From positions 32,805 through 56,804 of the forward strand of contig JAXLUG010000020.1 in the NCBI GenBank assembly GCA_046329665.1: DNA of 24,000 nt, read 5' to 3'. Made by a program: the position numbers and the translations under genes. This DNA is from Chitinophagaceae bacterium. GTDB lineage: Bacteria; Bacteroidota; Bacteroidia; Chitinophagales; Chitinophagaceae. The notes under the pieces are model-generated. The model was not told where the DNA came from, made no database searches, and worked only from the letters and a program-made list of their open reading frames with translations. Positions 4,304 through 17,395 of this stretch are shown one piece after another (within the stretch, counting starts at the first letter, position 1; the number at the start of each line of letters is the position of its first letter).

Positions 4304-4391
4304 GGAGACCTGCTCGAGTGGTTGAAGAGGCACGCCTGGAAAGTGTGTATACCCCCAAAGGGTATCGAGGGTTCGAATCCCTCGGTCTCCG
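4304..4391 (+). tRNA. tRNA-Ser, anticodon GGA
   Basis: Acceptor stem GGAGACC/GGTCTCC. Anticodon stem CACGC/GTGTG with loop CTGGAAA. Long variable arm (TATACCC...GGGTATC). T arm GAGGG-TTCGAATC-CCTCG. Discriminator G. CCA is not encoded. A TATTTTTG -7 box lies at 4271-4278. Confidence 0.9.
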
Positions 4392-4397
4392 CTCTTA

Positions 4398-4514: not shown

Positions 4515-4973
4515 CTACCAGTTATTTGCCTGGTCCGTATTTAATCGTTCAGATACGTCTGCCGGCTGGTGCTCTTTCCATTGGGGGTCGTATTTCACAA
4601 ACCAGGATATCCAGAGGCTGCGGCTCAGCCGCATGAGCCAGGGCTGGAGCATAAAAAGAAAGACCGCATTAAAGATCAGCCAGTAAAAAAACCGGTTATC
4701 GTTGGTCGACATGCCGATGATAAGGTACCAGGCGATCAGCGTGGCCACACTCAGGGCGATCGTCATCGCATAACTTACATAACTGGTGCCATAGTAGAAC
4801 CCTACTTCTATTTCCGTAGCCTGTCCGCACACAGGACAATTCTTGTTCATCTCCATCGTTCTTTTGAACCGGTAACTGACGGGATATTTGAATAGTTTTC
4901 CTTCCCTGCACCGCGGGCAACGGCAGCCGATGGCGGAAGCGAAATAGCCCCGGTGTTTTGTTTCTGCTGACAT
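4515..4973 (-). CDS. DUF983-like membrane protein with N-terminal Cys4 zinc-ribbon
   Basis: CPRCREGKLF...CPVCGQ, followed by two TM helices. Last gene of the 5729-to-4515 unit, starting 2 nt after the thioredoxin stop. Confidence 0.65.
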   Translation of the reverse strand: MSAETKHRGYFASAIGCRCPRCREGKLFKYPVSYRFKRTMEMNKNCPVCGQATEIEVGFYYGTSYVSYAMTIALSVATLIAWYLIIGMSTNDNRFFYWLIFNAVFLFMLQPWLMRLSRSLWISWFVKYDPQWKEHQPADVSERLNTDQANNW

Positions 4974-4974
4974 A

Positions 4975-5298
4975 TTAATTGCTGGTTATATGCTGGTCAA
5001 TGATCCGCTCCAGGGAGGCGGCCTGTATCACACCCGACTGCCGCCAAAGCTGTTTTCCTTTCTGAAAAAGCAACAGTGTGGGAACACTCTGCACCTGAAA
5101 TGCATGAGCGGCAGCGGGGCTTTGGTCGATATCGATCTTGATGATGCGGAGTTTATTTCCTTTCCGCTGATGCAGTTCATCAAGCACCGGTTTCATCACC
5201 CTGCAGGGGCCACACCAGGTAGCCGTAAAGTCTACCAGTACCGGTACCTCTCCGTTGATGAGCTCACCAAAACTTTCCTTTTTATTGTTTGCTGTCAT
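4975..5298 (-). CDS. Thioredoxin (WCGPC)
   Basis: 107 aa with VLVDFTATWCGPCRVMKPVL and a ...SVPTLLLF... thioredoxin fold signature. Confidence 0.9.
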   Translation of the reverse strand: MTANNKKESFGELINGEVPVLVDFTATWCGPCRVMKPVLDELHQRKGNKLRIIKIDIDQSPAAAHAFQVQSVPTLLLFQKGKQLWRQSGVIQAASLERIIDQHITSN

Positions 5299-5503
5299 TT
5301 TGTTTCGTTTCTTTTCTGAACATGCTGAACAACAGCCCGCCCATCAGTGCCCCGTAGGCTGTTGAGCGATGCCACTTCGAAGTGATCATACAGGTGCCAT
5401 TGCTGCATCCCACCTGCTGCCAGTACAAATAACCGCCCAGGGCCCCGATCAGCACACCAGCGATCGTCCATTTATTTTTCAGCACCCAATTCTTCATATT
5501 CAA
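5282..5503 (-). CDS. Small two-helix membrane protein with GCSNGTC motif (DUF6132-like)
   Basis: 73 aa reading IAGVLIGALGGYLYWQQVGCSNGTCMITS...YGALMGGLLF. Overlaps both neighbours (17 nt with trx, 26-32 nt with the upstream gene). Confidence 0.55.
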   Translation of the reverse strand: MNMKNWVLKNKWTIAGVLIGALGGYLYWQQVGCSNGTCMITSKWHRSTAYGALMGGLLFSMFRKETKQNDSKQ

Positions 5504-5729
5504 TAGTATCCGTTTCTTTTATCGTGCCGGGTCGTTGCGGTGCGTAACAGTTACCGCCTGCACAGCAAACCCCGTCTGTGAACAAAGCAAATAGTGTAAA
5601 CAAGGCCCCCAGTACTATACCGGGCACATGGTGCTCTGTAATGGATGAGGACAAAATTAAGATACCCAGCACAACCCGGATGATCTTTAATACGGTCCAG
5701 CCGCTTTTTAACCTGTCTGTCAGCACCAT
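5472..5729 (-). CDS. Small membrane protein with CCAGGNC motif (possibly a YgaP/DUF2892-like two-helix domain)
   Basis: 85 aa reading LKIIRVVLGILILSS...GIVLGALFTLFALFTDGVCCAGGNCY. First gene after an operator-bearing promoter. Confidence 0.5.
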   Translation of the reverse strand: MVLTDRLKSGWTVLKIIRVVLGILILSSSITEHHVPGIVLGALFTLFALFTDGVCCAGGNCYAPQRPGTIKETDTIEYEELGAEK

Positions 5730-5745
5730 AATTGTGTATTTGAAG

Positions 5746-5789
5746 CAAATTTCTGATTCCGGCGGTGGCCTGCGGGTGACTATTGTTAC
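5746..5789 (-). promoter_or_regulatory. Operator-promoter 1: site GTAACAATAGTCAC (5776-5789, 1 mismatch), 22 nt, then -7 box GAAATTTG (5746-5753)
   Basis: Member of the eight-site phased set. About 12 nt of predicted leader before the ATG at 5729. Confidence 0.55.
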
Positions 5790-5798
5790 AAACTGCTC

Positions 5799-6827
5799 CT
5801 AATAGCTCATTTCATCCAGCTTTACCTTTCCTTTAAAGGTCCAGAAAACAAAACTGGTGTATACGCCAACGAGCGGGGTGCCGATCAGGGCGATCAGCAG
5901 CAGTGTCTTCATGGTCCTGGGCGAAGAAGCGGCATTTTGCACGGTGATGCTGTTGGCGATATTGTTCCTGGCATACACAAGTTGCGGGAATACCTCCACG
6001 GCCACAGCGGCCAGCAGGGAGGCAATGGTGACTGCGGAACTGATAAAAGCAAAACGGTAATTGCCTTTTTTAAGCTGCCGCGGAATATTGGCAATGGCCA
6101 GTAACATTAGGGCCGGCAGCACAAAGTAAGCAGGGTTACTTCTTATCCTGTCGCTGAGATGCGGAATATATAACAACGTGTAAAGTGTGGTGAGGCTGAA
6201 TGTGACCAGGAAGAAAACGGTGAAGTTCTTTGCCAGGATGGTGAGCCTGGTGTACAGGCGGTTCTCTGTTTTCATGGCCAGGTAAATGGCGCCATGCATC
6301 ATGAACAACGCCAGGGTGGTGACAGCCACCAGTATCGAAAACGGATTAAAGAAGGTGAGCAGGTTGCCGGTGAATTCTTTCTGTTCATTGAGCGGCAGTC
6401 CCGCTGCAATATTACCAAGCATCAGGCCCAGTGACAAGGTAACCACGATACAGGCGAAGGAATAGATGAAGTCCCATGTCATGCGCCATTTTTTACCAGG
6501 CTCTTTGCTCCTGAATTCGATCGCCACCGCCCTCCATATAAGCCCGATCAGAAAGATCATGACCGGGAGGTAAAAAGCGGAGAAGATAGCCGCATAAGCA
6601 ACGGGGAAGCCGGCAAACAAGGCGCCGCCCCCGATCACCAGCCATACTTCGTTACCATCCCATACCGGGCCGATGGCATTCAGGGCAATCCGGCGGCTGG
6701 TTTCTTTGCGGAGAAAAAGATGCAGGGCCCCGGCACCCAGATCGAAACCATCCAGGATAGCATACCCTGTAATGACTGCGCCAAACACCAGGAACCATAA
6801 CGTGTTATAATCAATGCCAAGGAACAT
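5799..6827 (-). CDS. cydB: Cytochrome bd ubiquinol oxidase subunit II
   Basis: 342 aa polytopic protein. The N-terminus LWFLVFGAVITGYAILDGFDLGAG and later WDGNEVWL are CydB hallmarks. It begins 2 nt after the cydA stop. Confidence 0.9.
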   Translation of the reverse strand: MFLGIDYNTLWFLVFGAVITGYAILDGFDLGAGALHLFLRKETSRRIALNAIGPVWDGNEVWLVIGGGALFAGFPVAYAAIFSAFYLPVMIFLIGLIWRAVAIEFRSKEPGKKWRMTWDFIYSFACIVVTLSLGLMLGNIAAGLPLNEQKEFTGNLLTFFNPFSILVAVTTLALFMMHGAIYLAMKTENRLYTRLTILAKNFTVFFLVTFSLTTLYTLLYIPHLSDRIRSNPAYFVLPALMLLAIANIPRQLKKGNYRFAFISSAVTIASLLAAVAVEVFPQLVYARNNIANSITVQNAASSPRTMKTLLLIALIGTPLVGVYTSFVFWTFKGKVKLDEMSY

Positions 6828-6829
6828 AG

Positions 6830-8218
6830 TTATTGTGATGAAGTGTTCATGAATGGGTTTTGTCTTCTGCTGGTTGCGTCTTCTTCCGCCGCTGCTGCCT
6901 GCAGCACGGGGCCGTGTTTTATTTTTTTATTCAGCAGGTAAAGAAAAAGGACAAACAGCGTGGCATACACCAGGGTGAAAAGGATCAGTGATGTGAGTAC
7001 CTGTTCGGCCTTTACCGTGGCAGACAGTGCATCGGATGTACGCAGCAGGCCATACACCACCCAGGGCTGTCTTCCCATTTCTGCGGCAAACCATCCGGCC
7101 TGGTTGGCGATCTGTGGCAGCAATACCGCCCAGACAAATACGATCATCAGCCACTTTTTATCAAACAGTTTTCCTCTTCTCCATTGCCAGGCTGCATACA
7201 GGGTTAATATGATCAGTGCAATGCCAATGGCCACCATGAGGTGATAGAACTGGAATACCGCATTTACCTGTGGTGGTGTGGTATCAGCGGCAAAGGCATT
7301 CAGCCCGGTAACGGGGGCATAAAAATCACCATGAAGTAAAAAGCTTAAGCCGCCGGGGATCCGGATACCGGCCGTGTGCTGCTCTTTTTTACTGACCCAG
7401 CCCAGTATATACATATCCGCCGCACCGGTACTATCGAAATGACCTTCCATAGCCGCCATCTTGGCCGGTTGATTTTTTGCGACCCCTTCTGCACTGCGGT
7501 GACCGAGAAACAACTGTGCCAGGGAAAAAACAATTCCCACCGCCAGGGCGATCCGGAAGGAAGGTTTGGCGATCTCCAGGTGTTTCTTTTTAAGAATGTA
7601 CCAGGCATTCACACTCATCACCAGGAAGGCACCGGCAAGAAAGGCGCCCGTCCATACATGCAGGAGCCGGTCCACACTGGAAGGATTGAAAACCATCTGC
7701 CAGAAATCGGTGATCTCGGCCCGGGCCTGCATGCCTTCACCAACGATATGAAAACCGGAAGGCGTTTGCTGCCAGCTGTTGGCCACCACGATCCATACGG
7801 CGCTGAACAAGGAACCTAGGAATACCATCAGTGCCGAAAAGAAATGAACTTTCGGGCTCACCCTTTTCCAGCCAAAGAGCAGGATACCGAGGAAACCGCT
7901 TTCGAGTGCAAAAGCAAAAATGCCTTCTGCAGCAAGGGCGCTGCCGAAAATATCACCGACATACCGGGAGTAAGTGGCCCAGTTGGTGCCGAATTCAAAT
8001 TCCATGATGATGCCGGTGGCAACCCCTAACCCGAAAACAAGGGCAAAGATCCGGATCCAGAACCGGGTCATATCCTCGTACATCTTTTTCCCGGTTTTCA
8101 GGTAAAGACCTTCCATGATCACAATGATGAGCCCAAGACCGATACTTAATGGAGGATAGATGTAATGAAATGAAATGGTGAAAGCAAATTGCAGGCGGGA
8201 TAATATCTCGGTATCCAT
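6830..8218 (-). CDS. cydA: Cytochrome bd ubiquinol oxidase subunit I (short Q-loop size class, 462 aa)
   Basis: The start is taken at MDTEILSRLQFAFTISFHYIYPPLSIG (ATG 8218). The track's extra 38 aa N-terminal extension has no CydA-like sequence. GRQPWVVYGLLRT lies near the C-terminus. Confidence 0.9.
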   Translation of the reverse strand: MDTEILSRLQFAFTISFHYIYPPLSIGLGLIIVIMEGLYLKTGKKMYEDMTRFWIRIFALVFGLGVATGIIMEFEFGTNWATYSRYVGDIFGSALAAEGIFAFALESGFLGILLFGWKRVSPKVHFFSALMVFLGSLFSAVWIVVANSWQQTPSGFHIVGEGMQARAEITDFWQMVFNPSSVDRLLHVWTGAFLAGAFLVMSVNAWYILKKKHLEIAKPSFRIALAVGIVFSLAQLFLGHRSAEGVAKNQPAKMAAMEGHFDSTGAADMYILGWVSKKEQHTAGIRIPGGLSFLLHGDFYAPVTGLNAFAADTTPPQVNAVFQFYHLMVAIGIALIILTLYAAWQWRRGKLFDKKWLMIVFVWAVLLPQIANQAGWFAAEMGRQPWVVYGLLRTSDALSATVKAEQVLTSLILFTLVYATLFVLFLYLLNKKIKHGPVLQAAAAEEDATSRRQNPFMNTSSQ

Positions 8219-8295
8219 GTCAGTTGTTTCTGTAATGTTATGCGCAGCAAGGCCCGGAACACAACTGCCTTTTCCGGCAGTATCGTTTCCGGAAA

Positions 8296-8339
8296 CAAAG
8301 ATCACTGCAAAGTTCAGGCATGACGGTGACATTCATGAC
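8296..8339 (-). promoter_or_regulatory. Operator-promoter 2 (cydAB): site GTCATGAATGTCAC (8326-8339, 1 mismatch), 22 nt, then -7 box GATCTTTG (8296-8303)
   Basis: Same phasing as the other seven sites. Lies just downstream of the sqr terminator. About 70 nt of predicted leader. Confidence 0.5.
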
Positions 8340-8369
8340 AAAAAAAACGGCTGCTGAAAAGCAGCCGCT
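8340..8369 (-). terminator. Rho-independent terminator after sqr
   Basis: The minus strand reads GCGGCTGC-TTTTCA-GCAGCCG followed by TTTTTTTT (A-run 8340-8347 on the plus strand). Confidence 0.7.
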
Positions 8370-8390
8370 CAGAATAACCAAAACCAGCTT

Positions 8391-9587
8391 TTACATTTTA
8401 CCGGGCAGTATCTTATGCCAGTAAAGCCAGGGGAGCACCCTTCTTTTCAGCTGGTACATGCTCCATCTTTCCTTGCTTTGGTCAAAGGGGAAGGTTTCAA
8501 TGGGTGTATTGTTATAATCAAATTCACAAAGCACCAGCTTACCGTAACCGGTTACGACCGGGCAGCTGGTATAACCATTATAGCTTGCTTCGGGTTTCCT
8601 GCCTTCCATTACGGCCAGCAGGTTTTTAACCAGTACAGGGGCCTGTTTACGTATGGCGGCACCGGTGCGGGAGGTGGGCAGGGAAGAAGCATCGCCCAGT
8701 GAAAAGATGTTGGGATACTTCACATGCTGTAATGTGTGTTTATCAACATCCACCCAGCCGGCTGTGTTGGCCAGCGAGCTGTTCCGGATAAAATCAGGGG
8801 CACTCTGCGGCGGGGTTACATGTATCATGTCAAAATCCACCCAGTATTCTTTGTCCTTATTCTGCTCGCCAAAGCCCACAAACTTTGCCTTCTTATTCGG
8901 GCCGTCTATTTCAACCAGTTTGGTGAAGAAGTTCATCTGCACTTTATCCCGCTCTGCTACTTTCTTAAAGGTCTTTTCATATTTCTCCACCCCAAAGAGC
9001 CGGGTTCCGCCGCTCCAGTATTGGATCTCGGTCTTGTCAAATACACCCTGTTTTTTAAAATAATCGGCTGCCAGCCACATGATCTTATGCGGGGCACCGC
9101 CACATTTTACCGGTGTATTGGGGTTAGTGAACAAGGCCCTGCCCCCTTTGAATTGGCGGATGCATTCCCAGGTGTAAGGCACATCGTTCACGCTGTAGTT
9201 GGAACATACTCCATTTTTGCCCAGGGTTTCTTTCAGTCCTTTGATCTCGTTCCAGTTTAACTGGATGCCCGGTGCCACGACCAGGTATTCATAGCCCACT
9301 GTATCGCTGTTGTCCAGGGTAATGGTATTGGCTTCCGGCTGAAAGGAAACGGCTTTTTGTTTGAGCCACTTTACTTCTTTGGGCATCACGTCAGCCTCGT
9401 TATGAATGGTGTTCTTCATATTGAACACACCGGCACCCACCAGTGTCCAGGCGGGCTGGTAATAATGTTTGTCGGAGGGCTCGATAATGGCAATATCAAG
9501 TTTCCTGTTTTTGCGGAGCAGTTGTGAAGCGGTGGAGATGCCGGCATTTCCGCCGCCGACGATCACGACCTTGTGTTGGTGCAACAT
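8391..9587 (-). CDS. sqr: Sulfide:quinone oxidoreductase, type II (SQRDL-like FAD flavoprotein)
   Basis: 398 aa. N-terminal VVIVGGGNAGIS dinucleotide fold and HYYQPAWTLVGAGV, typical of type II SQR. Also GAPHKIMW and SLGDASSLPTSRTGAA. Confidence 0.8.
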   Translation of the reverse strand: MLHQHKVVIVGGGNAGISTASQLLRKNRKLDIAIIEPSDKHYYQPAWTLVGAGVFNMKNTIHNEADVMPKEVKWLKQKAVSFQPEANTITLDNSDTVGYEYLVVAPGIQLNWNEIKGLKETLGKNGVCSNYSVNDVPYTWECIRQFKGGRALFTNPNTPVKCGGAPHKIMWLAADYFKKQGVFDKTEIQYWSGGTRLFGVEKYEKTFKKVAERDKVQMNFFTKLVEIDGPNKKAKFVGFGEQNKDKEYWVDFDMIHVTPPQSAPDFIRNSSLANTAGWVDVDKHTLQHVKYPNIFSLGDASSLPTSRTGAAIRKQAPVLVKNLLAVMEGRKPEASYNGYTSCPVVTGYGKLVLCEFDYNNTPIETFPFDQSKERWSMYQLKRRVLPWLYWHKILPGKM

Positions 9588-9606
9588 AGCTGAAATGTTT
9601 ATGCAG

Positions 9607-9650
9607 CTAAGGTAGTTTCAGGAGGAAGGCATAGTGGTGATATTAGTCAC
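9607..9650 (-). promoter_or_regulatory. Operator-promoter 3 (sqr): exact site GTGACTAATATCAC (9637-9650), 22 nt, then -7 box TACCTTAG (9607-9614)
   Basis: Exact GTGA-N6-TCAC palindrome. About 15 nt of predicted leader to the ATG at 9587. Confidence 0.6.
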
Positions 9651-9717
9651 CATGATCCGGTTTATTTTGAAAATCATGCCCCCGTTCCGGTCCGCATGAT
9701 AACAGTCAGTTTTTTTT

Positions 9718-9761
9718 GTGACTTATGTCATTCCCGTCCCTTCCCCCCGCCTTGAAATTTG
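9718..9761 (+). promoter_or_regulatory. Operator-promoter 4 (PDO-rhodanese A): site GTGACTTATGTCAT (9718-9731, 1 mismatch), 22 nt, then -7 box GAAATTTG (9754-9761)
   Basis: Divergent from promoter 3 in the same intergenic region. Predicted leader of about 115 nt to the ATG at 9882. Confidence 0.5.
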
Positions 9762-9881
9762 TTTGCTATAACTGGTGTATAAAAAAAATAAGCTTATGAA
9801 TACTTCCTGTACATCCCGCTGTCCCTGAAAGACCAGCCGCCTTTTACCCAAACCTGATTTATTCATACTAAAAAAAATTTT

Positions 9882-11306
9882 ATGAAAATAGAACAGATCT
9901 ATACCGGTTGTCTTGCCGAAGCCGCCTACTACATCGAAAGTGATGGTGAAGCGGCAATCATTGATCCCTTACGGGAAACAAAACCATACATGGAGCGGGC
10001 GGAACGGAACGGGGCCAGGATCAAATATATTCTTGAAACACACTTTCATGCTGATTTCGTCAGCGGCCATATTGACCTGGCAAAGAAAACAGGCGCCATG
10101 ATCGTCTTCGGTCCGACCGCTGCTCCCGGATATGATGCACATGTGGCCAGGGATGGCGAGGAACTGACCCTGGGAAAAGTCAAGTTCAGGGTACTGCATA
10201 CACCGGGCCATACAATGGAATCGACCACTTATTTACTGATGGATGAAAACGGGAAGGAGAACTCCATTTTCACCGGCGACACCTTATTCATCGGGGATGT
10301 GGGAAGGCCCGACCTGGTTCAAAAGGTAAAGGCGGAAGTGACACCACAACTGCTGGCCGGTCACTTATTTGATTCACTCCGCCACAAGATCATGCGGCTG
10401 CCGGATGATGTTATTGTATATCCGGGCCATGGTGCCGGCAGTGCCTGCGGCAAGAATATGAGCCGGGAGACAACCGATACCCTGGGCCACCAGAAGAAAG
10501 TGAATTACGCCCTGCGGGCCGGTATGACGAAGGAGGAATTCATCAAAGAAGTGACGGACGGGCTGGTGGAGCCCCCGCAATATTTTCCCTTTAATGTGCT
10601 GATGAACCTGAAAGGAGGCATTGACAGTATTGATGCCATCATCGAAAGAGGAAGCAAACCGCTTACGGCCCGTGAATTTCAAACGGCCTGGGAGAGCCTG
10701 GAAACCCTGGTGATCGATACAAGGAGCAAGGATGCCTTTGCCGCCGAACACATACCCGGTTCGGTCTTCATCGGTATCGATGACAATTTTGCCCCCTGGG
10801 CCGGCACCCTGATCACCAATTTGAAGCAGCCCATTCTTTTTATAGCAGAGGAGGGAAGGGAAGAAGAAGTGATCACCCGGCTGGCCAGAGTGGGATATGA
10901 TAACACAATGGGTTATCTGAAAGGCAGTATCTGGGCCTGGAAAGAAGCCGGTTTTGAAACCAGCTCGCTGGAAGAGACCGATGCGGAATCATTTGCTGCC
11001 CTTTACGAGAGCGGGATCGAAAAGATCAACCTGCTGGATGCAAGAAGAAAAAGCGAATATGATTCGGAACACCTGATGGGGGCCGAAAATTTCCCGCTTG
11101 ACTTTATCAACCAAAATATGGCGCAGCTGGACCGGAATAAAAAATATTATATCCATTGTGCGGGGGGGTACCGTTCTGTGATCATGTGCTCTATCCTTCG
11201 GGCGAGAGGATATGAGAAGGTGGTGAACATACGGGGCGGGTACAAATCCCTCAGCCAGACCGGCCTGAGAAAAACCAAGTACGTGGAGCCCACTACAATG
11301 CTCTGA
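9882..11306 (+). CDS. Persulfide dioxygenase (MBL fold, ETHE1-like) fused to a Cys-less rhodanese-like domain and a catalytic C-terminal rhodanese (CstB-like), paralog A
   Basis: 474 aa. ETHFHADFVSGH metal motif, HTPGHT and GDTLFIGDVGRPDL. The middle rhodanese-like domain has no Cys in its loop (FIAEEGREEEV). The C-terminal active-site loop is YYIHCAGGYRS. Confidence 0.8.
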   Translation: MKIEQIYTGCLAEAAYYIESDGEAAIIDPLRETKPYMERAERNGARIKYILETHFHADFVSGHIDLAKKTGAMIVFGPTAAPGYDAHVARDGEELTLGKVKFRVLHTPGHTMESTTYLLMDENGKENSIFTGDTLFIGDVGRPDLVQKVKAEVTPQLLAGHLFDSLRHKIMRLPDDVIVYPGHGAGSACGKNMSRETTDTLGHQKKVNYALRAGMTKEEFIKEVTDGLVEPPQYFPFNVLMNLKGGIDSIDAIIERGSKPLTAREFQTAWESLETLVIDTRSKDAFAAEHIPGSVFIGIDDNFAPWAGTLITNLKQPILFIAEEGREEEVITRLARVGYDNTMGYLKGSIWAWKEAGFETSSLEETDAESFAALYESGIEKINLLDARRKSEYDSEHLMGAENFPLDFINQNMAQLDRNKKYYIHCAGGYRSVIMCSILRARGYEKVVNIRGGYKSLSQTGLRKTKYVEPTTML

Positions 11307-11331
11307 TCCGTCAGCGTAAATAATAGGTAAG

Positions 11332-11360
11332 GCCGGCCCCGTTGCGGGCCGGCTTTTTTT
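11332..11360 (+). terminator. Rho-independent terminator after PDO-rhodanese A
   Basis: GCCGGCCC (11332-11339) pairs with GGGCCGGC (11346-11353), followed by T7 (11354-11360). Confidence 0.75.
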
Positions 11361-11404
11361 GTGATAACCGTCACAGGGCATTCCGGGCAATACGGGTACA
11401 TTTG
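11361..11404 (+). promoter_or_regulatory. Operator-promoter 5 (thioredoxin 2): exact site GTGATAACCGTCAC (11361-11374; full TGTGA-N6-TCACA with flanks), 22 nt, then perfect -7 box TACATTTG (11397-11404)
   Basis: The best match to both consensus elements. About 15 nt of predicted leader to the ATG at 11424. Confidence 0.65.
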
Positions 11405-11423
11405 TTGTTTAATAAAGTAAACT

Positions 11424-11792
11424 ATGGCTACAATAAAAATGACCACGCAGGATTTTAAAGACAAGGTCTTTAATTATGAAACAGAGCAGGACTGGAAATA
11501 CCAGGGAGCGCTTCCTGCTATTATCGACTTTTATGCTGACTGGTGTGGCCCCTGCCGTATGGTAGCCCCGATTCTGGAAGAATTATCCAACGAATATGAT
11601 GGTAAGCTGGTGATCTATAAAGTGGATACGGATGCTGAACAGGAGCTTTCCGCTGTGTTTGGTATCCGCAGCATCCCTACCATGCTCTTTATCGGCGCAG
11701 ATGGCGAGCCGATGATGCAGCCGGGCGCCTTGCCAAAGCATGTGCTTCGCCAGGTGATCGAAGAAAAGATGCTTGTAAAAAAGGCCGGTTAA
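11424..11792 (+). CDS. Thioredoxin (WCGPC), 122 aa
   Basis: IIDFYADWCGPCRMVAPILEEL and ...IRSIPTMLFI. Confidence 0.9.
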   Translation: MATIKMTTQDFKDKVFNYETEQDWKYQGALPAIIDFYADWCGPCRMVAPILEELSNEYDGKLVIYKVDTDAEQELSAVFGIRSIPTMLFIGADGEPMMQPGALPKHVLRQVIEEKMLVKKAG

Positions 11793-11808
11793 CACAACCG
11801 GCCTTTTT
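11777..11808. terminator. Bidirectional terminator between convergent trx and YeeE-like genes
   Basis: A6, then GGCCGGTT (11783-11790), loop AACAC, AACCGGCC (11796-11803), then T5. Confidence 0.7.
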
Positions 11809-11831
11809 GATCAGCTAATGCAGTCCTGCTG

Positions 11832-12377
11832 TTAATGCGGCAGGCTGCTTCTGAACCGGCCGTATACCCAGGTTCCGATAATAGCGCTGAATAAGGTGAC
11901 GATCACAGCCAGCGCACCGGTACCGATCTGGGCATACAACGGGCCCGGGCAGGCGCCGGTCAATGCCCAGCCTGTTCCGAAGATCAGGCCGCCATATACC
12001 TGGCCTTTATTGAATTTTTTTGGTTCGAGCCTGATCTCTTCGCCGTCAAGGGACTTTAGTTTGAATCGTTTGATCAGGAATACACTGATGATCCCGACCA
12101 CCACGGCAGAACCGATGACACCAAACATATGGAAACTCTGCAGCCGGAACATTTCCTGGATACGGAACCAGGAGATCACCTGCGATTTCACCAGGATGAT
12201 ACCAAACAACATCCCGGCCACGGCATATTTTATTTTTGCAACAAGTGGCTTATCAAGCGTGGAATGATTCACACACATGGCATGTTCGGAACGTACTTCG
12301 TAATCTGTATTTACCTGCTGGGCCACGAAGGGCTTTTCACTGGCAGCAATTTCCGGGCTTATATTTTTAACTGACAT
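11832..12377 (-). CDS. YeeE/YedE-family sulfur-compound transporter half (second of a pair)
   Basis: FGIILVKSQVISWFRIQEMFRLQSFHMFGVIGSAV and the GWALTGACPGP motif. The N-terminal 40 aa may be an over-extension; an alternative start is M34. Confidence 0.7.
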   Translation of the reverse strand: MSVKNISPEIAASEKPFVAQQVNTDYEVRSEHAMCVNHSTLDKPLVAKIKYAVAGMLFGIILVKSQVISWFRIQEMFRLQSFHMFGVIGSAVVVGIISVFLIKRFKLKSLDGEEIRLEPKKFNKGQVYGGLIFGTGWALTGACPGPLYAQIGTGALAVIVTLFSAIIGTWVYGRFRSSLPH

Positions 12378-12392
12378 AGTAAAGGATAAAAG

Positions 12393-12956
12393 TTAGAGAT
12401 GTAAAATATAGGGCAGCACCAGGTTGGCGGCGGCAAACCCGCCTGCCATAAAACAACAGGTGGCTACCAGGGAAGGCCATTGAAGGTTGCTTAGCCCCAT
12501 GATTGAATGTCCTGAAGTACACCCGCCGGCATACCGGGTGCCGAAGCCCACAAGAAAGCCACCCGCCACCATCAACACAACCCCTCTGGGTGTCAGCAGG
12601 GCCTGCCACGAAAAAAGATCACCCGGTACCAGCCCCTCGTAATGCGTAATTCCATAACCATTCAGTTCGGCCACCAGCTTCGGGTTTACTTTGATGGGAT
12701 TAGGGTCAGCCAGGAACTTTGCGGCCAGTATCCCGCCTATAATGATACCTCCGGCGAAAAATAGATTCCAGACCTCTTTTTTCCAGTCATATTTGAAAAA
12801 AGGAACATTGGAAGGTGCGCAGGCGGCGCAAACATGCCGGAGAGAGGAAGAAATACCAAACGATTTATTACCAAGGAGAAGCAGAAGCGGTACCGTTAAC
12901 CCGATCAATGGCCCGGCTACGTACCAGGGCCAGGGTTGTCTGAGCCATTCAAGCAT
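12393..12956 (-). CDS. YeeE/YedE-family sulfur-compound transporter half (first of a pair)
   Basis: The start is taken at MLEWLRQPWPWYVAGPLIGL (ATG 12956), not the track's 13148. The RYAGGCTSGH motif is present. Confidence 0.75.
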   Translation of the reverse strand: MLEWLRQPWPWYVAGPLIGLTVPLLLLLGNKSFGISSSLRHVCAACAPSNVPFFKYDWKKEVWNLFFAGGIIIGGILAAKFLADPNPIKVNPKLVAELNGYGITHYEGLVPGDLFSWQALLTPRGVVLMVAGGFLVGFGTRYAGGCTSGHSIMGLSNLQWPSLVATCCFMAGGFAAANLVLPYILHL

Positions 12957-12969
12957 AGTTGATTTTTTA

Positions 12970-13013
12970 CAAAGGTCAATATACGGAAAGCGGGGGCAGG
13001 TGACTTTTGTTAC
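12970..13013 (-). promoter_or_regulatory. Operator-promoter 6 (internal, YeeE pair): site GTAACAAAAGTCAC (13000-13013, 1 mismatch), 22 nt, then -7 box GACCTTTG (12970-12977)
   Basis: Same phasing as the other sites. The operator overlaps the stop codon (13010-13012) of the upstream barrel gene. About 9 nt of predicted leader. Confidence 0.5.
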
Positions 13014-13735
13014 CGGGAAAAAGAAGAATTTTTCCCGAACCGGAGATTCAACTGGATATATAGCTGGTTGCGGTGGAATGTCCGGGTATTGCTTTTTTGC
13101 AGTACCCACTGGTAACCTGCGTCGAGGCTGGTGCCCTGGTGTACCCATTGTAAGCCGCCATAGATCCGTTCCTGGTCGAAAAGGACGGGATACTTGTCTT
13201 TTTTTACCATCACTTCATTATAGAAGGTGGCGGACAAGGCCTGCTTGTTTTTTACTGAAAAAAGCGGAACCGAGAGGCTGTTCTGCAACCGCAGTCTTAC
13301 CTGGGTAAAGTGCAGCGGATCGTTGTATTGGATAAAACGTTCTTCCACCAGCAGCCGGTTTTTATTTTTAACCGACCGGTGGCCGATCGTTTTCAATACA
13401 CCGCCGGTGAGGCGGATCTCTTCTGTTTCCCTCAGATCGCCTTTTGCGTCTGCAATATCATTGTTTCGGAGCCAGGCAAATGGGGAAAGGAGAAGCGTCC
13501 AGTTTTCCGGAAGTTGGTAATACACCCACAGGCGGGCAAGGTTTCCCAACGGGTAATGAAAAATATTCTTATCGCCGTTCCGGTAGTTCGCCTGGCTTCG
13601 GTGCAGCAGATCCAGGCCGGCCGACCAGTGTTTATCCAGCAGGACGGTGGTATTCACCCTTACCCAGCATTCATGTCTTGTTTGTGAAGCGGCAAGAAGG
13701 GGGAGTACCGTAACCAGGAGCAGCCATCGTTTCAT
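13010..13735 (-). CDS. Putative outer-membrane beta-barrel protein (DUF2490-like) with signal peptide
   Basis: Signal peptide MKRWLLLVTVLPLLAASQ. Alternating-polarity strands, RLLVEERF, and a C-terminal ...YIQLNLRF aromatic end region. The start overlaps the rhodanese stop by 1 nt. Confidence 0.5.
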   Translation of the reverse strand: MKRWLLLVTVLPLLAASQTRHECWVRVNTTVLLDKHWSAGLDLLHRSQANYRNGDKNIFHYPLGNLARLWVYYQLPENWTLLLSPFAWLRNNDIADAKGDLRETEEIRLTGGVLKTIGHRSVKNKNRLLVEERFIQYNDPLHFTQVRLRLQNSLSVPLFSVKNKQALSATFYNEVMVKKDKYPVLFDQERIYGGLQWVHQGTSLDAGYQWVLQKSNTRTFHRNQLYIQLNLRFGKNSSFSR

Positions 13736-14046
13736 CAGGCTATTTTATGCTGAAGACGGGTCCAGGGCCCCCCATTATACACTTCAATACCGGCTGACCG
13801 GAGGATGTTCCTGGCCATACCGCTCCGGGCGCCGCTCCGGCAGACCGTGATCACCGGTTTATTGATCTTTTTCAGCTCTGCGACTTTGCTCCGGATATTA
13901 TCCAGCGGAAAATTCTTCGATCCTTTGATGTGCCCGCTTTTATATTCTGCCGCAGAACGTACATCAACAATGATGGCGCCTTTACTTACCAGTTCCCTGA
14001 GGTCGACAGCCGTGCCGCCAAAGATCTTCTTCAGAAATCCTATCAT
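13735..14046 (-). CDS. Single-domain rhodanese sulfurtransferase
   Basis: 103 aa with IIVDVRSAAEYKSGHIKGS and the active-site loop VCRSGARS. Confidence 0.85.
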   Translation of the reverse strand: MIGFLKKIFGGTAVDLRELVSKGAIIVDVRSAAEYKSGHIKGSKNFPLDNIRSKVAELKKINKPVITVCRSGARSGMARNILRSAGIEVYNGGPWTRLQHKIA

Positions 14047-14052
14047 GATTGT

Positions 14053-14334
14053 TTAGTTTAAGAGTGATTGCATATCGGTTAAGCCGCCGCCGTTATAGAT
14101 ATCGGTCAGCCCGCTTTGCCGGAGCAGTTGTACCGCCATACCGCTTCTGTTGCCGCTCCGGCAATAGAGTACTACCGGTTTATTGATGGCTTTGAGGTCG
14201 CCGGATTTACCATATATATCTTCCAGCGGGATGTTCATGGCGCCGGGTATGTGTTCCATATCAAATTCCCAGGGGCTCCTTACATCCACGATCAGTGTGT
14301 TCGGATCATTTACGAGTTGTTTAATCGTATTCAT
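14053..14334 (-). CDS. Single-domain rhodanese sulfurtransferase
   Basis: 93 aa with IVDVRSPWEFDMEHIPGA and the active-site loop YCRSGNRS. Confidence 0.85.
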   Translation of the reverse strand: MNTIKQLVNDPNTLIVDVRSPWEFDMEHIPGAMNIPLEDIYGKSGDLKAINKPVVLYCRSGNRSGMAVQLLRQSGLTDIYNGGGLTDMQSLLN

Positions 14335-14409
14335 AGAAAAAAATTTTTTAAAGGAAGGGCCGGGGTTGAACCCGGCGCAAGGAATCGTTGTTCTTAGCCG
14401 GCTGCTGGT

Positions 14410-15828
14410 TTAAAGTAGGGTGGAAGGGCATACATAATCAGTAAGGGTAAATTTCCCGCTCTCCTTTATTGCCTTGAACCCTCCTTTTACATCAATCAGT
14501 TTGTCGTACCCCCTTGCCCGGAGGATCGACGTGAAGATCATGGAGCGGTAACCACCGGCACAATGAACATAATAGGTTTTGTTTTTATCGAGCTGTGCCA
14601 TGCTGTCGTTGATGAAATCAAGCGGGGCATTCTCCGCATCGGGGATATGCTCGCTCTGGAACTCACTTTTTTTACGGACGTCCAGGATATTCACTTCCTG
14701 TTTTTTCATCAGTCCTGCCAGTTCATCAGCGCTAACGGAAAGGATATGGTCTGTTTCTTTTCCGGCCGCCTTCCAGGCGCTGAAACCCCCTTTCAGGTAC
14801 CCGATCGTATGATCATACCCCACTCTGGCCAAACGGGTGATCACTTCTTCTTCACGGCCCTCATCGGTGATCAGCAGTATTTCCTGTTTGATATCAGGGA
14901 TCATCGCCCCTACCCAGGGGGCAAACTGTCCGTCGATGCCAATATTGACAGCGTTCGGGATAAATCCTTCAGCGAAGGTTTGCGGTGCTCTTGTATCAAG
15001 TACCAGGGCACCGGTTTCGTTGGCGGCGGCTTCAAAAGCATCGGGGCTTAAGGCATGCTGGCCTCTTTCAAGCACCTTGTCAATGCTTTCATATCCCTGG
15101 ATGTTCAGCATTACATTCAGCGGAAAATAGGCCGGGGGCGCCACAAGCCCGGTGGTTACTTCCCTGATGAATTCCTCTTTGGTCATATCAGCCCGGAGTG
15201 CATAGTTGGTTTCCTTCTGGTGACCAAGTGTATCCGTTGTTTCCTTACTCATGTTCTTGCCACAGGCACTTCCGGCACCGTGGGCCGGATACACGATAAT
15301 ATCATCTGCCAGCGGCATGATCTTACTGCGCAAAGAATCAAAAAGATAACCGGCGAGTTTATCCTGGGTGAGATCGGCCACTACTTTCTGGGCAAGATCA
15401 GGTCTGCCTACATCGCCTATAAAGAGTGTATCACCTGAAAACAGCCCTGCTGCTTTCCCGTTTTCATCGCGGAGCAGGAAACAGCTGCTTTCCATGGTAT
15501 GACCGGGCGTATGTAATACCTGCAGTGTAACATGGCCTACTTTGAATTCCTGCCCATCCGTGGCAATAATGGCATCAAAAGCCGGTCTGGCACCCGGGCC
15601 GTATACGATCGGGGCACCGGTTTTTTTGGACAGGTCAAGATGACCGCTGACAAAATCGGCGTGAAAGTGGGTTTCAAAGACATATTTAATCCGGGCATTA
15701 TTACTTTCTGCTTTATGGAGGTAGGGCTCCACTTCCCGGAGCGGATCGATGATCACGGCTTCACCATTGCTTTCGATGTAATAGGCTCCTTGTGCAAGGC
15801 AGCCGGTGTAGATCTGTTCAACTTTCAT
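14410..15828 (-). CDS. Persulfide dioxygenase-rhodanese fusion (CstB-like), paralog B
   Basis: 472 aa, colinear with paralog A (roughly two-thirds identical by eye). ETHFHADFVSGH, HGAGSACGKNMS, Cys-less middle loop LITDEGREEEV, and C-terminal loop YYVHCAGGYRS. Confidence 0.8.
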   Translation of the reverse strand: MKVEQIYTGCLAQGAYYIESNGEAVIIDPLREVEPYLHKAESNNARIKYVFETHFHADFVSGHLDLSKKTGAPIVYGPGARPAFDAIIATDGQEFKVGHVTLQVLHTPGHTMESSCFLLRDENGKAAGLFSGDTLFIGDVGRPDLAQKVVADLTQDKLAGYLFDSLRSKIMPLADDIIVYPAHGAGSACGKNMSKETTDTLGHQKETNYALRADMTKEEFIREVTTGLVAPPAYFPLNVMLNIQGYESIDKVLERGQHALSPDAFEAAANETGALVLDTRAPQTFAEGFIPNAVNIGIDGQFAPWVGAMIPDIKQEILLITDEGREEEVITRLARVGYDHTIGYLKGGFSAWKAAGKETDHILSVSADELAGLMKKQEVNILDVRKKSEFQSEHIPDAENAPLDFINDSMAQLDKNKTYYVHCAGGYRSMIFTSILRARGYDKLIDVKGGFKAIKESGKFTLTDYVCPSTLL

Positions 15829-15845
15829 CTTTGATTAATTTGAAG

Positions 15846-15889
15846 CAAATTTCTGTCTGTGTGCAGAACCTGACAGTGACTAGCATCAC
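15846..15889 (-). promoter_or_regulatory. Operator-promoter 7 (PDO-rhodanese B operon): exact site GTGATGCTAGTCAC (15876-15889), 22 nt, then -7 box GAAATTTG (15846-15853)
   Basis: Exact palindrome. Shares an identical 18-mer core with promoter 1. About 13 nt of predicted leader. Confidence 0.65.
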
Positions 15890-15903
15890 AATCACCGGGG
15901 GCG

Positions 15904-16710
15904 TCAGCGGAGGAGGATTTCCTTTGTGATGATATAAATACCCATTACGAGGATGAACCACCCAAATCCTCTTTTCAGTGATTTGCCGGGTATTTTTTCA
16001 GCGAAACGGCTGCCGATAAAAATGCCAAGGATGGCAAGCCCGGTGAAGACAAGCAGCAGCACCCAGTTATAACTGAACTGTTTCAGGCTGAATAAAAATC
16101 CAAAGAGTGAATTGATAGCGATGATGAGCAGGGAAGTGCCTACGGCCTTTTTCATTGCCAGGCCCAGGAACACCACCAGTGAAGGGATGATGAGAAAACC
16201 ACCGCCGGCTCCCAGTAACCCTGTCAACGTACCTATCAGCAAGCCGAGGAATATAAGCGGGATCACTTTGCTTGCCGGGTGTGAGCTGGTTTCGTTTTGT
16301 TCAGGGACAGCATCCCTTTTACTTCTTATCATGGTAACGGAAGCAGCCACCATCAGGATGGCAAACACCACCATCAGCAGGATGTCCTTTGAAACGGGCT
16401 TGCTGCCGATATAAAATACAGTCTCTGGTATAGCAGGCAGAATATAATGACGGGCAATGAAGATGGAGAAAACAGAGGGAATACCGAATTCGGTTATAGC
16501 CCTGAAGTCGATCAGGTTCTTTGAATAAGCCCTTATCCCGCCAACAAGGCTGGTAAGTCCAACGATGAAGAGTGAACTGGCTGTGGCTTCCAGCGGGTGT
16601 ACGCCCATCAGGTATACCAGTACGGGTACGGTAAGGATAGATCCGCCGCTGCCGACCAGGCCCAGTGAGATGCCGATGAGTACAGAAGCCAGATAGCCGA
16701 GGATCTCCAT
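15904..16710 (-). CDS. TauE/SafE-family (TSUP) sulfite/organosulfonate exporter
   Basis: 268 aa, about 8 TM helices, with repeated GxGGGxxxxP-like motifs (LVGSGGSILTVP, LLGAGGGFLIIP). Confidence 0.8.
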   Translation of the reverse strand: MEILGYLASVLIGISLGLVGSGGSILTVPVLVYLMGVHPLEATASSLFIVGLTSLVGGIRAYSKNLIDFRAITEFGIPSVFSIFIARHYILPAIPETVFYIGSKPVSKDILLMVVFAILMVAASVTMIRSKRDAVPEQNETSSHPASKVIPLIFLGLLIGTLTGLLGAGGGFLIIPSLVVFLGLAMKKAVGTSLLIIAINSLFGFLFSLKQFSYNWVLLLVFTGLAILGIFIGSRFAEKIPGKSLKRGFGWFILVMGIYIITKEILLR

Positions 16711-16723
16711 GTATTATTTTTTG

Positions 16724-16767
16724 CAAGATTAGCGACAGTCTTTATCCTGCATTGTGACACAAATCAC
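16724..16767 (-). promoter_or_regulatory. Operator-promoter 8 (tauE): exact site GTGATTTGTGTCAC (16754-16767), 22 nt, then -7 box TAATCTTG (16724-16731)
   Basis: Exact palindrome placed between the regulator stop (16778) and the tauE ATG (16710). Confidence 0.6.
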
Positions 16768-16777
16768 GGCCGGTAAA

Positions 16778-17395
16778 TCATACCAGTTCGATCATGTTCC
16801 GGTGAAGCTTTACCAGGTTTCGCTGTTCCATCTTTTTTAAGAGTCTTGAAATCACCTCCCGGGAGCTGTTCAGGTCATCTGCGATCTGCTGATGGGAAAG
16901 CTCGATCGTTTTTTTACCGCTTACACCGGCATGGCGTTTCAGGTAAAACTCCAGTCTTTCGTCCATGTTACGGAAAGCAATATTGTCCACCACCGCCAGC
17001 AGCTCATCAAACCGTGAACGATAGGTTTGTATCACGAACTGGTACCAGCTTTTGTACTTGTTCATCAGGTCATCCATTAACTGGATGGGGATCATCAGCA
17101 CTTCGGTATCTTCTTCGGCCTTGGCCATTACTTCACTGGTCTGCGATTGAAGGGCGCAGATCATGGAAACCGCACAGGCCTGGCCGGGGCCGAGATAATA
17201 CATGAGGAATTCACCGCCTTCTGCATTTTCCCGGTATATTTTTATTCTTCCTTCCAGCACCAGCACGGCTGATTTAATGTATTGCCCTGTCCGCATAATG
17301 ATATCACCGGCATTAAAGCTTCGCTGGATCGCTTCTTTTTCGATCAGTTCAACCAGGTGGGGTTCGAATTGCGGGAATAATTGTTTCCAGTTCAT
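16778..17395 (-). CDS. Crp/Fnr-family transcriptional regulator; candidate regulator of the sulfur island
   Basis: 205 aa. Beta-roll effector domain (GDIIMRTGQYIKSAVLVLEGRIKIYR) and HTH LSHQQIADDLNSSREVISRLLKKM. Exactly two Cys (C73, C80). No N-terminal FNR-type Cys cluster. Confidence 0.8.
   Translation of the reverse strand: MNWKQLFPQFEPHLVELIEKEAIQRSFNAGDIIMRTGQYIKSAVLVLEGRIKIYRENAEGGEFLMYYLGPGQACAVSMICALQSQTSEVMAKAEEDTEVLMIPIQLMDDLMNKYKSWYQFVIQTYRSRFDELLAVVDNIAFRNMDERLEFYLKRHAGVSGKKTIELSHQQIADDLNSSREVISRLLKKMEQRNLVKLHRNMIELV

Follow-up and report, generated by a model that had tools for sequence, protein, structure and literature searches.

Introduction

Heterotrophic oxidation of sulfide by SQR and PDO enzymes is widespread, and it matters for sulfur cycling, wastewater treatment and sulfide tolerance. 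To our knowledge, an understanding of how these enzymes are controlled is limited to Proteobacteria and Firmicutes, with the regulators CstR, SqrR/BigR and FisR, and we know of no sulfide regulator for the Bacteroidota, a phylum found in abundance in the ocean, in sediments and in activated sludge. Here we analyze a stretch of 24,000 nucleotides (nt) from a metagenome-assembled genome of a Chitinophagaceae bacterium (contig JAXLUG010000020.1, positions 32,805 to 56,804; hereafter the window), in which eight operators of the Crp/Fnr type stand at one fixed distance from the promoter boxes of a cluster of sulfur genes. The cluster adjoins a gene for a Crp/Fnr-family protein of 205 amino acids (16778-17395, minus strand; hereafter the regulator), the putative operator-binding protein.

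The dedicated sensors of reactive sulfur species (RSS) are assigned to the CsoR, ArsR and Fis superfamilies by a review of August 2026, with MarR-type and other regulators as secondary sensors (PMC13467558). CstR, SqrR/BigR/YgaV and FisR resemble the system of the window in their regulon, which comprises SQR, PDO, rhodaneses, TauE, YeeE/YedE and cytochrome bd (PMC13467558), and in a possible Cys-pair sensor. They belong to other protein families and bind other DNA sites, and the regulator studied here is probably a sigma-A activator, not a repressor or a sigma-54 enhancer-binding protein. In the sister phylum, Chlorobaculum tepidum has a predicted CRP-type motif upstream of the sulfide-induced genes psrABC and cydAB (10.1101/172254). 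That motif differs in being PrfA-like without a spacer and in its position, some 57 bp upstream of the start site. It has no link to SQR, PDO and TauE, which there carry a separate repressor motif, and its candidate regulator is absent from other Chlorobiaceae (10.1101/172254).

With CRP and FNR at the class II promoters of Escherichia coli, the system shares the protein fold, the R-E-x3-R helix, the GTGA-N6-TCAC core and the inferred centre at -41.5, which overlaps the upstream promoter element. It differs from them in using the Bacteroidota sigma-A with a -7 box, TAnnTTTG, instead of -10 and -35 elements, and in having sulfur-oxidation genes as targets. The regulator also lacks the Glu72 and Arg82 contacts of CRP and the four-Cys cluster of FNR, and it reaches 47 bits with the NCBIfam CRP model (cut-off 266) and 32 bits with the Fnr model (cut-off 228). 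NtcA of the cyanobacteria recognizes GTA-N8-TAC through a helix R-V-T-V-T-R, and its class II sites are likewise centred at -41.5. Among the 40 PDB matches listed for the regulator, NtcA structures rank second as a group (E = 2e-9). NtcA, however, senses 2-oxoglutarate and controls nitrogen assimilation, and the regulator scores 47.7 bits with the NCBIfam NtcA model, far below the cut-off of 245. The closest solved structure among the same 40 matches is PDB 3DV8, an uncharacterised Crp/Fnr-family protein of the Firmicute Eubacterium rectale (E = 9e-23), which shares both cysteines of the regulator and has the helix S-H-R-E-V-I-T-R.

Within the Bacteroidota, the nearest precedent is HcpR/HcpR2 of Bacteroides and Porphyromonas, found also in clostridia, for which GTAAC-N4-GTTAC sites lie upstream of hcp and in which HcpR2 has a Pro at the position of Glu181 (PMC1274295). 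It is likewise a Crp/Fnr regulator with a near-identical operator type and a small local regulon, and it was predicted by the same comparative logic (PMC1274295). HcpR differs as a haem and NO sensor with an hcp regulon; no hcp-type gene occurs among the targets in the window and in the 160 related loci described below, and no chain named HcpR is among the 40 PDB matches listed.

In the literature that we searched, with subscription-only papers outside it, no regulator of the Crp/Fnr type was found for SQR, PDO or TauE of Bacteroidota. The proposal of a first-pass annotation of this DNA, made from its letters only, that a Crp/Fnr sulfide regulon would be new for the phylum, thus survives these searches and the sensor list of the review (PMC13467558). 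The type of mechanism is that of a classical Crp/Fnr regulon and the controlled genes are those of an RSS regulon; that their combination is new is supported within the literature searched. The finding supplies a candidate regulator, operator and regulon that can be read from genome sequence in hundreds of species.

Eight operators at a constant distance from the promoter box

Read in gene orientation, eight 14-mers of the window fit the consensus GTGAY-N4-RTCAC, and in all eight a gap of 22 nt separates the operator from a box of the type TAnnTTTG. The sites were scored with a composite matrix that joins the operator to a box at 22 nt and was trained on orthologous loci only, with the window excluded. 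From right to left, GTGATTTGTGTCAC (16754-16767, minus strand), with the box TAATCTTG (16724-16731), precedes tauE and scores 31.3 bits, and GTGATGCTAGTCAC (15876-15889, minus strand), with the box GAAATTTG (15846-15853), precedes the unit of PDO-rhodanese B (pdoB), two rhodaneses and a DUF2490 protein (26.2 bits). These are followed by GTAACAAAAGTCAC (13000-13013, minus strand; box GACCTTTG, 12970-12977), ahead of the YeeE/YedE pair with 22.3 bits, and by GTGATAACCGTCAC (11361-11374, plus strand; box TACATTTG, 11397-11404), ahead of thioredoxin 2 (trx2) with 25.3 bits. Next, GTGACTTATGTCAT (9718-9731, plus strand; box GAAATTTG, 9754-9761; 28.3 bits) precedes PDO-rhodanese A (pdoA) via a leader of 120 nt, and GTGACTAATATCAC (9637-9650, minus strand; box TACCTTAG, 9607-9614; 22.3 bits) precedes the SQR-like gene. 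The weakest of the eight, GTCATGAATGTCAC (8326-8339, minus strand; box GATCTTTG, 8296-8303), lies ahead of cydA and cydB with 18.8 bits, and the leftmost, GTAACAATAGTCAC (5776-5789, minus strand; box GAAATTTG, 5746-5753), precedes a unit of a Cys-Cys membrane protein, a DUF6132 protein, thioredoxin 1 (trx1) and a DUF983 protein with 24.6 bits. The distance from the box to the start codon is 13-19 nt, with the exception of cydA (80 nt) and pdoA.

Searched over both strands of the 24 kb, the composite matrix gave nothing else of 10 bits or more, and in shuffled windows it gave 0.06 matches of 14 bits or more. The core pattern GTGA-N6-TCAC occurs four times without mismatch in the window, in each case in an intergenic position, against an expectation of 0.25, and none of 100 shuffles reached four copies. 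With up to one mismatch there are 18 matches against 6.5 expected: eight are the sites listed above and the other ten are scattered background and have no box at 22 nt. A scan for sigma-70-type promoters was uninformative (21 found against 14.4 expected), as expected for Bacteroidota.

The first-pass annotation had given the same eight operators, gaps and boxes, and all were reproduced exactly. Its count of four exact copies, all intergenic, holds for the whole window, and its chance estimate of 0.4 copies per 24 kb is close to the value from shuffles. It had also held that one-mismatch copies arise by chance but do not share the spacing to a box, which is what the ten additional copies show. 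Its description of the sites as intergenic stands, with the minor qualification that the site at 13000-13013 has a 4-nt overlap with the DUF2490 stop codon.

Conservation of the operators in related loci

A scan with one genome per species yielded 80 loci with a regulator 81-91% identical to that of the window, nearly all from Chitinophagaceae and including cultured Terrimonas strains. When the distance from each palindrome (up to one mismatch) to a TAnnTTTG-like box was tabulated over these loci, a single spike was obtained, with 201 sites at 22 nt and 1-31 (typically about 10) at the other distances. When the loci are aligned on their sites, information content reaches about 2 bits per column in operator and box and about 0 bits in the spacer and flanks, so that the spacer is fixed in length while its sequence drifts, and the better conserved half-site is the promoter-proximal one. 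Judged by sequence comparison, this pattern reads as a textbook phylogenetic footprint, and footprinting was the test that had been set beforehand for the sites and their spacing.

The 22-nt sites of the 80 loci lie upstream of tauE in 71 cases, pdoB in 59, yeeE in 20 (at the first of the two genes, yeeE1), trx2 in 12 (12+5 for trx), sqr in 8, the Cys-membrane/trx unit in 7 and pdoA in 4. All six close orthologues of the SQR-like gene have the site upstream, and orthologous pdoA sites are found in the loci L027 and L079. The conserved core of the loci consists of murF (74), the regulator (80), tauE (69) and pdoB (60), and among the predicted targets the core is made up of tauE and the PDO-rhodanese gene adjoining the regulator. 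By comparison, sqr is present in few loci, and cydAB lies within the island in one other locus only (L079), which ends inside cydA. The same operators are present in cultured Terrimonas, so the sensing chemistry is directly testable there; carriers in culture are Terrimonas pollutisoli H1YJ31 and Terrimonas sp. R1, and the loci L078 and L076 were confirmed to have the sites.

Some genomes have additional targets, namely a TPMT/TehB-like methyltransferase, OsmC, Dps and a Kelch-like secreted protein. The first of these, an S-adenosylmethionine-type methyltransferase, recurs as a target or neighbour of the regulator in both subfamilies considered below (L055, L062, L066, L089 and L093), and methylation of sulfide or thiols might be an additional detoxification route.

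The operator at 5776-5789 has an asymmetric form, GTAAC..GTCAC, which is kept upstream of the orthologous gene in six of eight loci examined; of the other two, L080 has GTAAC..ATCAC and L074 has no site. The orthologous sites (L003, L012, L025, L026, L027, L050 and L080) have GTAAC as the distal half-site and GTCAC (ATCAC in L080) as the proximal one. Its persistence across species suggests a deliberately weaker or differently tuned site.

The regulator and its pairing with the operator

The regulator matches the Pfam families cNMP_binding (PF00027), HTH_Crp_2 (PF13545) and Crp (PF00325), all above their cut-offs. Its AlphaFold model (pLDDT 92.8) has a cNMP-binding-like beta-roll, a long dimerisation helix and a C-terminal helix-turn-helix, and Foldseek aligns it with CRP-cAMP and CAP-DNA structures at TM scores of 0.70-0.76. 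In a profile alignment with CRP (hhalign, probability 98.7%), the helix S-R179-E180-V-I-S-R184 is placed on the SRETVGR of CRP, whose residues R180, E181 and R185 read the GTGA half-site (PMC1274295). The protein is thus a member of the Crp/Fnr superfamily.

To describe the family, 1.8 billion representative proteins were searched, which gave 194 clusters with E < 1e-30, and 134 full-length members were used. In these representatives, R179 and R184 are each present in 133, while at position 180 there are 100 with Glu and 31 with Val. The synteny of regulator, tauE and PDO is maintained down to 45-52% identity, and members 34-52% identical to the regulator adjoin genes for PDO, TauE, YeeE, rhodanese or YgaP-type membrane proteins (YgaP-TM), with operators at 22 nt (once 23 nt) from the -7 box.

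The more distant subfamily with Val at position 180 was represented by 80 metagenome loci (L094-L173). Both sets of loci were searched for GTNA-N6-TNAC plus the box, a pattern that leaves the third base open, and both showed a spike at 22 nt. The Val-type loci gave 139 sites at 22 nt and at most 17 at any other spacing. Regulators with the helix SREVISR (Glu-type) are accompanied by GTGA..TCAC in 165 of 178 sites, and regulators with SRVVISR (Val-type) by GTAA..TTAC in 132 of 139 sites at the same 22-nt spacing. Residue 180 therefore covaries with the third base of the operator, Glu going with GTGA and Val with GTAA, in the same relation of Glu to Val and G to A that distinguishes CRP from NtcA. 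This pairing matches the known role of E181 in CRP (PMC1274295) and ties the operator to the adjacent regulator. Going by the recognition helix, the synteny and this pairing, the 16778-17395 protein is very probably the binder of the eight operators, and the two subfamilies offer a specificity code.

In 16 loci of the Val-type subfamily an operator also precedes the regulator gene itself, in a position of autoregulation, and a SulP sulfate permease, a peroxiredoxin and a cytochrome c are further targets in this subfamily.

Proposed mechanism and direction of regulation

We propose that the regulator would bind the eight GTGAY-N4-RTCAC operators as a dimer, at positions ending 22 nt upstream of a sigma-A -7 box and centred at -41.5, and that it would most likely activate transcription in class II fashion, in place of a -33 element. 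The eight promoters together would drive about 20 genes that oxidize sulfide and handle its products: the SQR-like flavoprotein, two fusions of persulfide dioxygenase with rhodanese, rhodaneses that stand alone, transport proteins of the YeeE/YedE type, a sulfite exporter of the TauE type, two thioredoxins, small membrane proteins with Cys motifs and, in this genome, a sulfide-resistant cytochrome bd oxidase. The signal would probably be a reactive sulfur species (persulfide or polysulfide, possibly sulfite), sensed through the invariant Cys74, together with Cys80, in a short helix that replaces the cAMP-binding cassette of CRP. Taken as a whole, this explanation seems to us probable. The earlier interpretation of the sites as a Crp/Fnr regulon is supported, and every part of it that can be tested computationally holds.

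From the promoter geometry we infer both the transcription starts and the sign of regulation. In a transcription start-site map of Flavobacterium psychrophilum, the motif TAnnTTTG occupies -12 to -5 (PMC9723704). With the 22-nt spacer, this position puts the operator at -48 to -35 and its centre at -41.5, in agreement with the figure in the first-pass annotation; the predicted geometry fits class II if the flavobacterial box position applies to the promoters of the window. The spacing is constant to a single base pair over two subfamilies and more than 300 sites, as expected of a protein that has to touch RNA polymerase at a single fixed place. For CRP, FNR and NtcA, a centre at -41.5 is the characteristic position of activation. 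A TTG at 17-19 nt upstream of the box, which would represent a -33 element, is found in none of the eight promoters of the window, in about 12% of the Glu-type sites and in about 6% of the Val-type sites, and the suggestion that the operator takes the place of this element is consistent with these counts. Class II-type activation by the regulator is accordingly the mode that we favour as probable, on the strength of the promoter sequences, and the system is among the cleanest sequence-based examples of an activator-type promoter geometry in a phylum with promoters unlike the E. coli model.

Several observations weigh against this explanation or parts of it. In the window no operator reaching 10 bits with the composite matrix lies ahead of the regulator or murF, and regulators of the Chitinophagaceae clade lack an operator of their own. 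The cydAB site has the lowest score, and because L079 ends inside cydA, the candidate membership of cydAB in the regulon rests on this site of the window. The covariation of residue 180 with the operator sets one clade against another, and few independent events may lie behind it, and one Glu-type relative, P0158 (helix TREVISK), adjoins a GTAA..TTAC site. Cys80 is present in just 77 of the 134 representatives. The relative P0190 (37% identical; L084 and L085) lies upstream of ferredoxin/flavoprotein and multihaem cytochrome genes, not of PDO or TauE, and no composite site was found in these two loci; the wider family is therefore not sulfur-linked throughout and probably serves other redox regulons as well. 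The absence of a -33 element lends only mild support to activation, since many promoters of Bacteroidota in any case show this element weakly or not at all (PMC7366714). Finally, a dimer at -48 to -35 could repress as well.

Repression by the same protein from the same operators, by occlusion of the upstream promoter region and with release by RSS as for CstR and SqrR, would agree with the behaviour of the best-characterised dedicated persulfide sensors, since CstR (CsoR superfamily) and SqrR/BigR (ArsR family) repress, with FisR as the exception (PMC13467558). The operator does cover -48 to -35, and about 29% of the tauE promoters of the relatives have a TTG at 18 nt from the box, a possible -33 element; most promoters, however, have no TTG at this spacing. 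Repressor sites moreover usually tolerate variable placement, as the PSOS motifs of Chlorobaculum do, whereas the operators described here keep their place to the base pair, and at the centre that is established as activating for the three regulators named above. We regard repression as unlikely.

Candidate signal and remaining alternatives

In the alignment with CRP, the cAMP contacts Glu72 and Arg82 correspond to Val76 and Ser87 of the regulator, so the cAMP contacts of CRP are absent. Cys74 and Cys80 are the only cysteines in the regulator and in all 120 close homologues, which excludes an FNR-type [4Fe-4S] site, and Cys74 is kept in 131 of the 134 representatives. In the model, residues 75-83 form a short helix equivalent to the phosphate-binding cassette, with Cys74 as its cap and Cys80 within it. 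The target set has the content of an RSS homeostasis regulon (SQR, PDO, sulfurtransferases, TauE and YeeE/YedE). Known RSS regulons include a switch to cytochrome bd, and the regulon of the window equals them in content, sulfide-resistant cytochrome bd included (PMC13467558). Both effector and sensing chemistry are inferred from the protein sequence and its targets. On the most economical reading, Cys74 and Cys80 would detect persulfide or polysulfide, or else sulfite, which PDO produces and TauE exports.

The regulon might be real and yet answer to a signal other than sulfur species, for instance oxygen, the redox state, a gas bound to haem or a metabolite, with the sulfur genes induced by hypoxia or a similar condition. 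Members of the Crp/Fnr family sense O2, NO, CO, 2-oxoglutarate and haem, and cydAB is a typical low-oxygen target; the conserved core, however, consists of PDO and TauE and not of respiratory genes, and cydAB is a rare addition to it. The limitation to two cysteines speaks against an FNR-type oxygen sensor. A profile alignment with CooA (sequence of 1FT9) places the invariant Cys of the regulator within one residue of the haem ligand Cys75, but the regulator has no equivalent of His77; haem ligation as in CooA is retained only as a minor rival. A signal of this kind is a rather improbable alternative to RSS.

That another protein binds the operators, or that they are promoter elements of an alternative sigma factor, is very improbable. 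The window encodes a second cNMP-domain protein (2380-2943), which we considered as the binder and rejected as unlikely: none of the 80 related loci encodes a counterpart, and the R-E..R motif is missing from its C-terminal helix. The operator sequence, in turn, varies in concert with the adjacent regulator's recognition helix. An inverted repeat suits a dimeric helix-turn-helix protein and not a sigma -35 element, and the box downstream of it is of the sigma-A type. Chance matches or remnants of a functionless repeat, for which one could cite the roughly 6.5 one-mismatch matches expected per window, are refuted by eight composite sites against 0.06 expected and by the conservation of the sites in 160 loci while the spacer drifts.

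Starting again from activation by the regulator in response to RSS, a bolder extension can be put forward, which we hold to be possible and offer tentatively. In it, this Crp/Fnr subfamily would be a fourth family of dedicated RSS sensors and the first among them predicted to activate at sigma-A promoters. Persulfide or polysulfide would be detected directly, at the invariant Cys74 bridged to Cys80, which lies six residues further on in the helix in place of the cAMP cassette, the SQR, PDO, TauE, YeeE and rhodanese genes would be switched on from -41.5, and a mini-ORF (a very short open reading frame, ORF) in the pdoA leader, described below, would add a translational layer. The system would be widespread in Bacteroidota, from soil and wastewater Chitinophagaceae to the relatives from mostly marine metagenomes.

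Organization of the gene cluster

The identities of the cluster genes were assigned by Pfam: cydAB, an SQR-like flavoprotein, two fusions of metallo-beta-lactamase and rhodanese domains (PDO-type), two thioredoxins, a split YeeE/YedE pair, two rhodaneses, and the DUF2490, TauE, DUF983 and DUF6132 proteins. The gene calls that the first-pass annotation had made for the controlled units are borne out by Pfam and NCBIfam.

From left to right, the first unit (4515-5729, minus strand; Pfam and translations) encodes an 85-amino-acid membrane protein with a CC..C motif (5472-5729), the DUF6132 protein (5282-5497), thioredoxin 1 (4975-5298) and the DUF983 protein (4515-4973). It is followed by cydB (5799-6827) and cydA (6830-8215) and by the SQR-like gene (8391-9587), all on the minus strand, and then, on the plus strand, by pdoA (9882-11306), which encodes a metallo-beta-lactamase and double-rhodanese protein, and trx2 (11424-11792). 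On the minus strand lie the sixth unit (11832-12956), with two YeeE/YedE-type (Sulf_transp) half-proteins (12393-12956 and 11832-12377), the seventh (13010-15828), with PDO-rhodanese B (14410-15828), two rhodaneses (14053-14334 and 13735-14046) and the DUF2490 protein (13010-13735), and the eighth, with tauE (15904-16710; TauE/SafE sulfite-exporter family, Pfam 1.5e-44). The regulator gene comes after tauE and lies 10 nt downstream of murF. The best NCBIfam model for the SQR-like gene is type III SQR, with 244 bits against a cut-off of 525, for which reason it is named SQR-like only.

The ORF of the DUF6132 protein (5282-5497, minus strand) encodes 71 amino acids with a G-C-S-N-G-T-C motif between two membrane segments, and it begins with 26 nt that are shared with the 3' end of the gene for the 85-amino-acid protein. 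It is a member of the first transcription unit that the earlier gene list did not contain. Judging from the DNA upstream of trx1, at least eight related loci seem to retain both the ORF and its overlap.

In the ORFs scanned (427-23567), no CsoR, ArsR or sigma-54 activator domain was found, and the only regulators were the two cNMP-domain proteins. The second of these (2380-2943, 187 amino acids), with a different helix-turn-helix, adjoins a DUF1272 gene, both within 2012-2943 on the minus strand. The base composition of the cluster does not differ from that of its surroundings, so nothing indicates a recently acquired island. A tRNA-Ser(GGA) gene (4304-4392, plus strand) sits about 120 nt outside the cluster on its left, and the part that varies among relatives is the left side (cydAB, sqr and pdoA).

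Leaders and terminators

A permissive Rfam scan of the whole window found the tRNA-Ser alone; the long leaders of cydA and pdoA matched no known riboswitch or leader family. When folded, the pdoA leader RNA gave no structure beyond that of shuffled sequences (z = -0.47), which lends no support to a terminator/antiterminator switch at the mini-ORF. The mini-ORF itself (9796-9828, plus strand) encodes MNTSCTSRCP and is conserved, the orthologous leaders of L027 and L079 encoding MQICNSRCP and MKRICPGRCP, each directly followed by the stop codon. Its peptide pattern occurs just three times in a six-frame translation of 1.86 Mb, always 62-65 nt after a pdoA operator, and may, on this sequence pattern, represent a Cys-rich leader peptide that ends in Pro-stop.

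Strong intrinsic terminators follow sqr (8345-8370, minus strand), just upstream of the cydA operator, and pdoA (stem-loop at 11329-11356, plus strand), just upstream of the trx2 operator. Two operators are thus directly preceded by strong terminators, which marks separate units that need promoters of their own. The trx2 operator begins 5 nt past the pdoA stem-loop, on its T-tail; at both terminators the operator of the next unit begins about 5 bases after the stem-loop, within the T-rich tail, so that terminator and operator are packed back to back.

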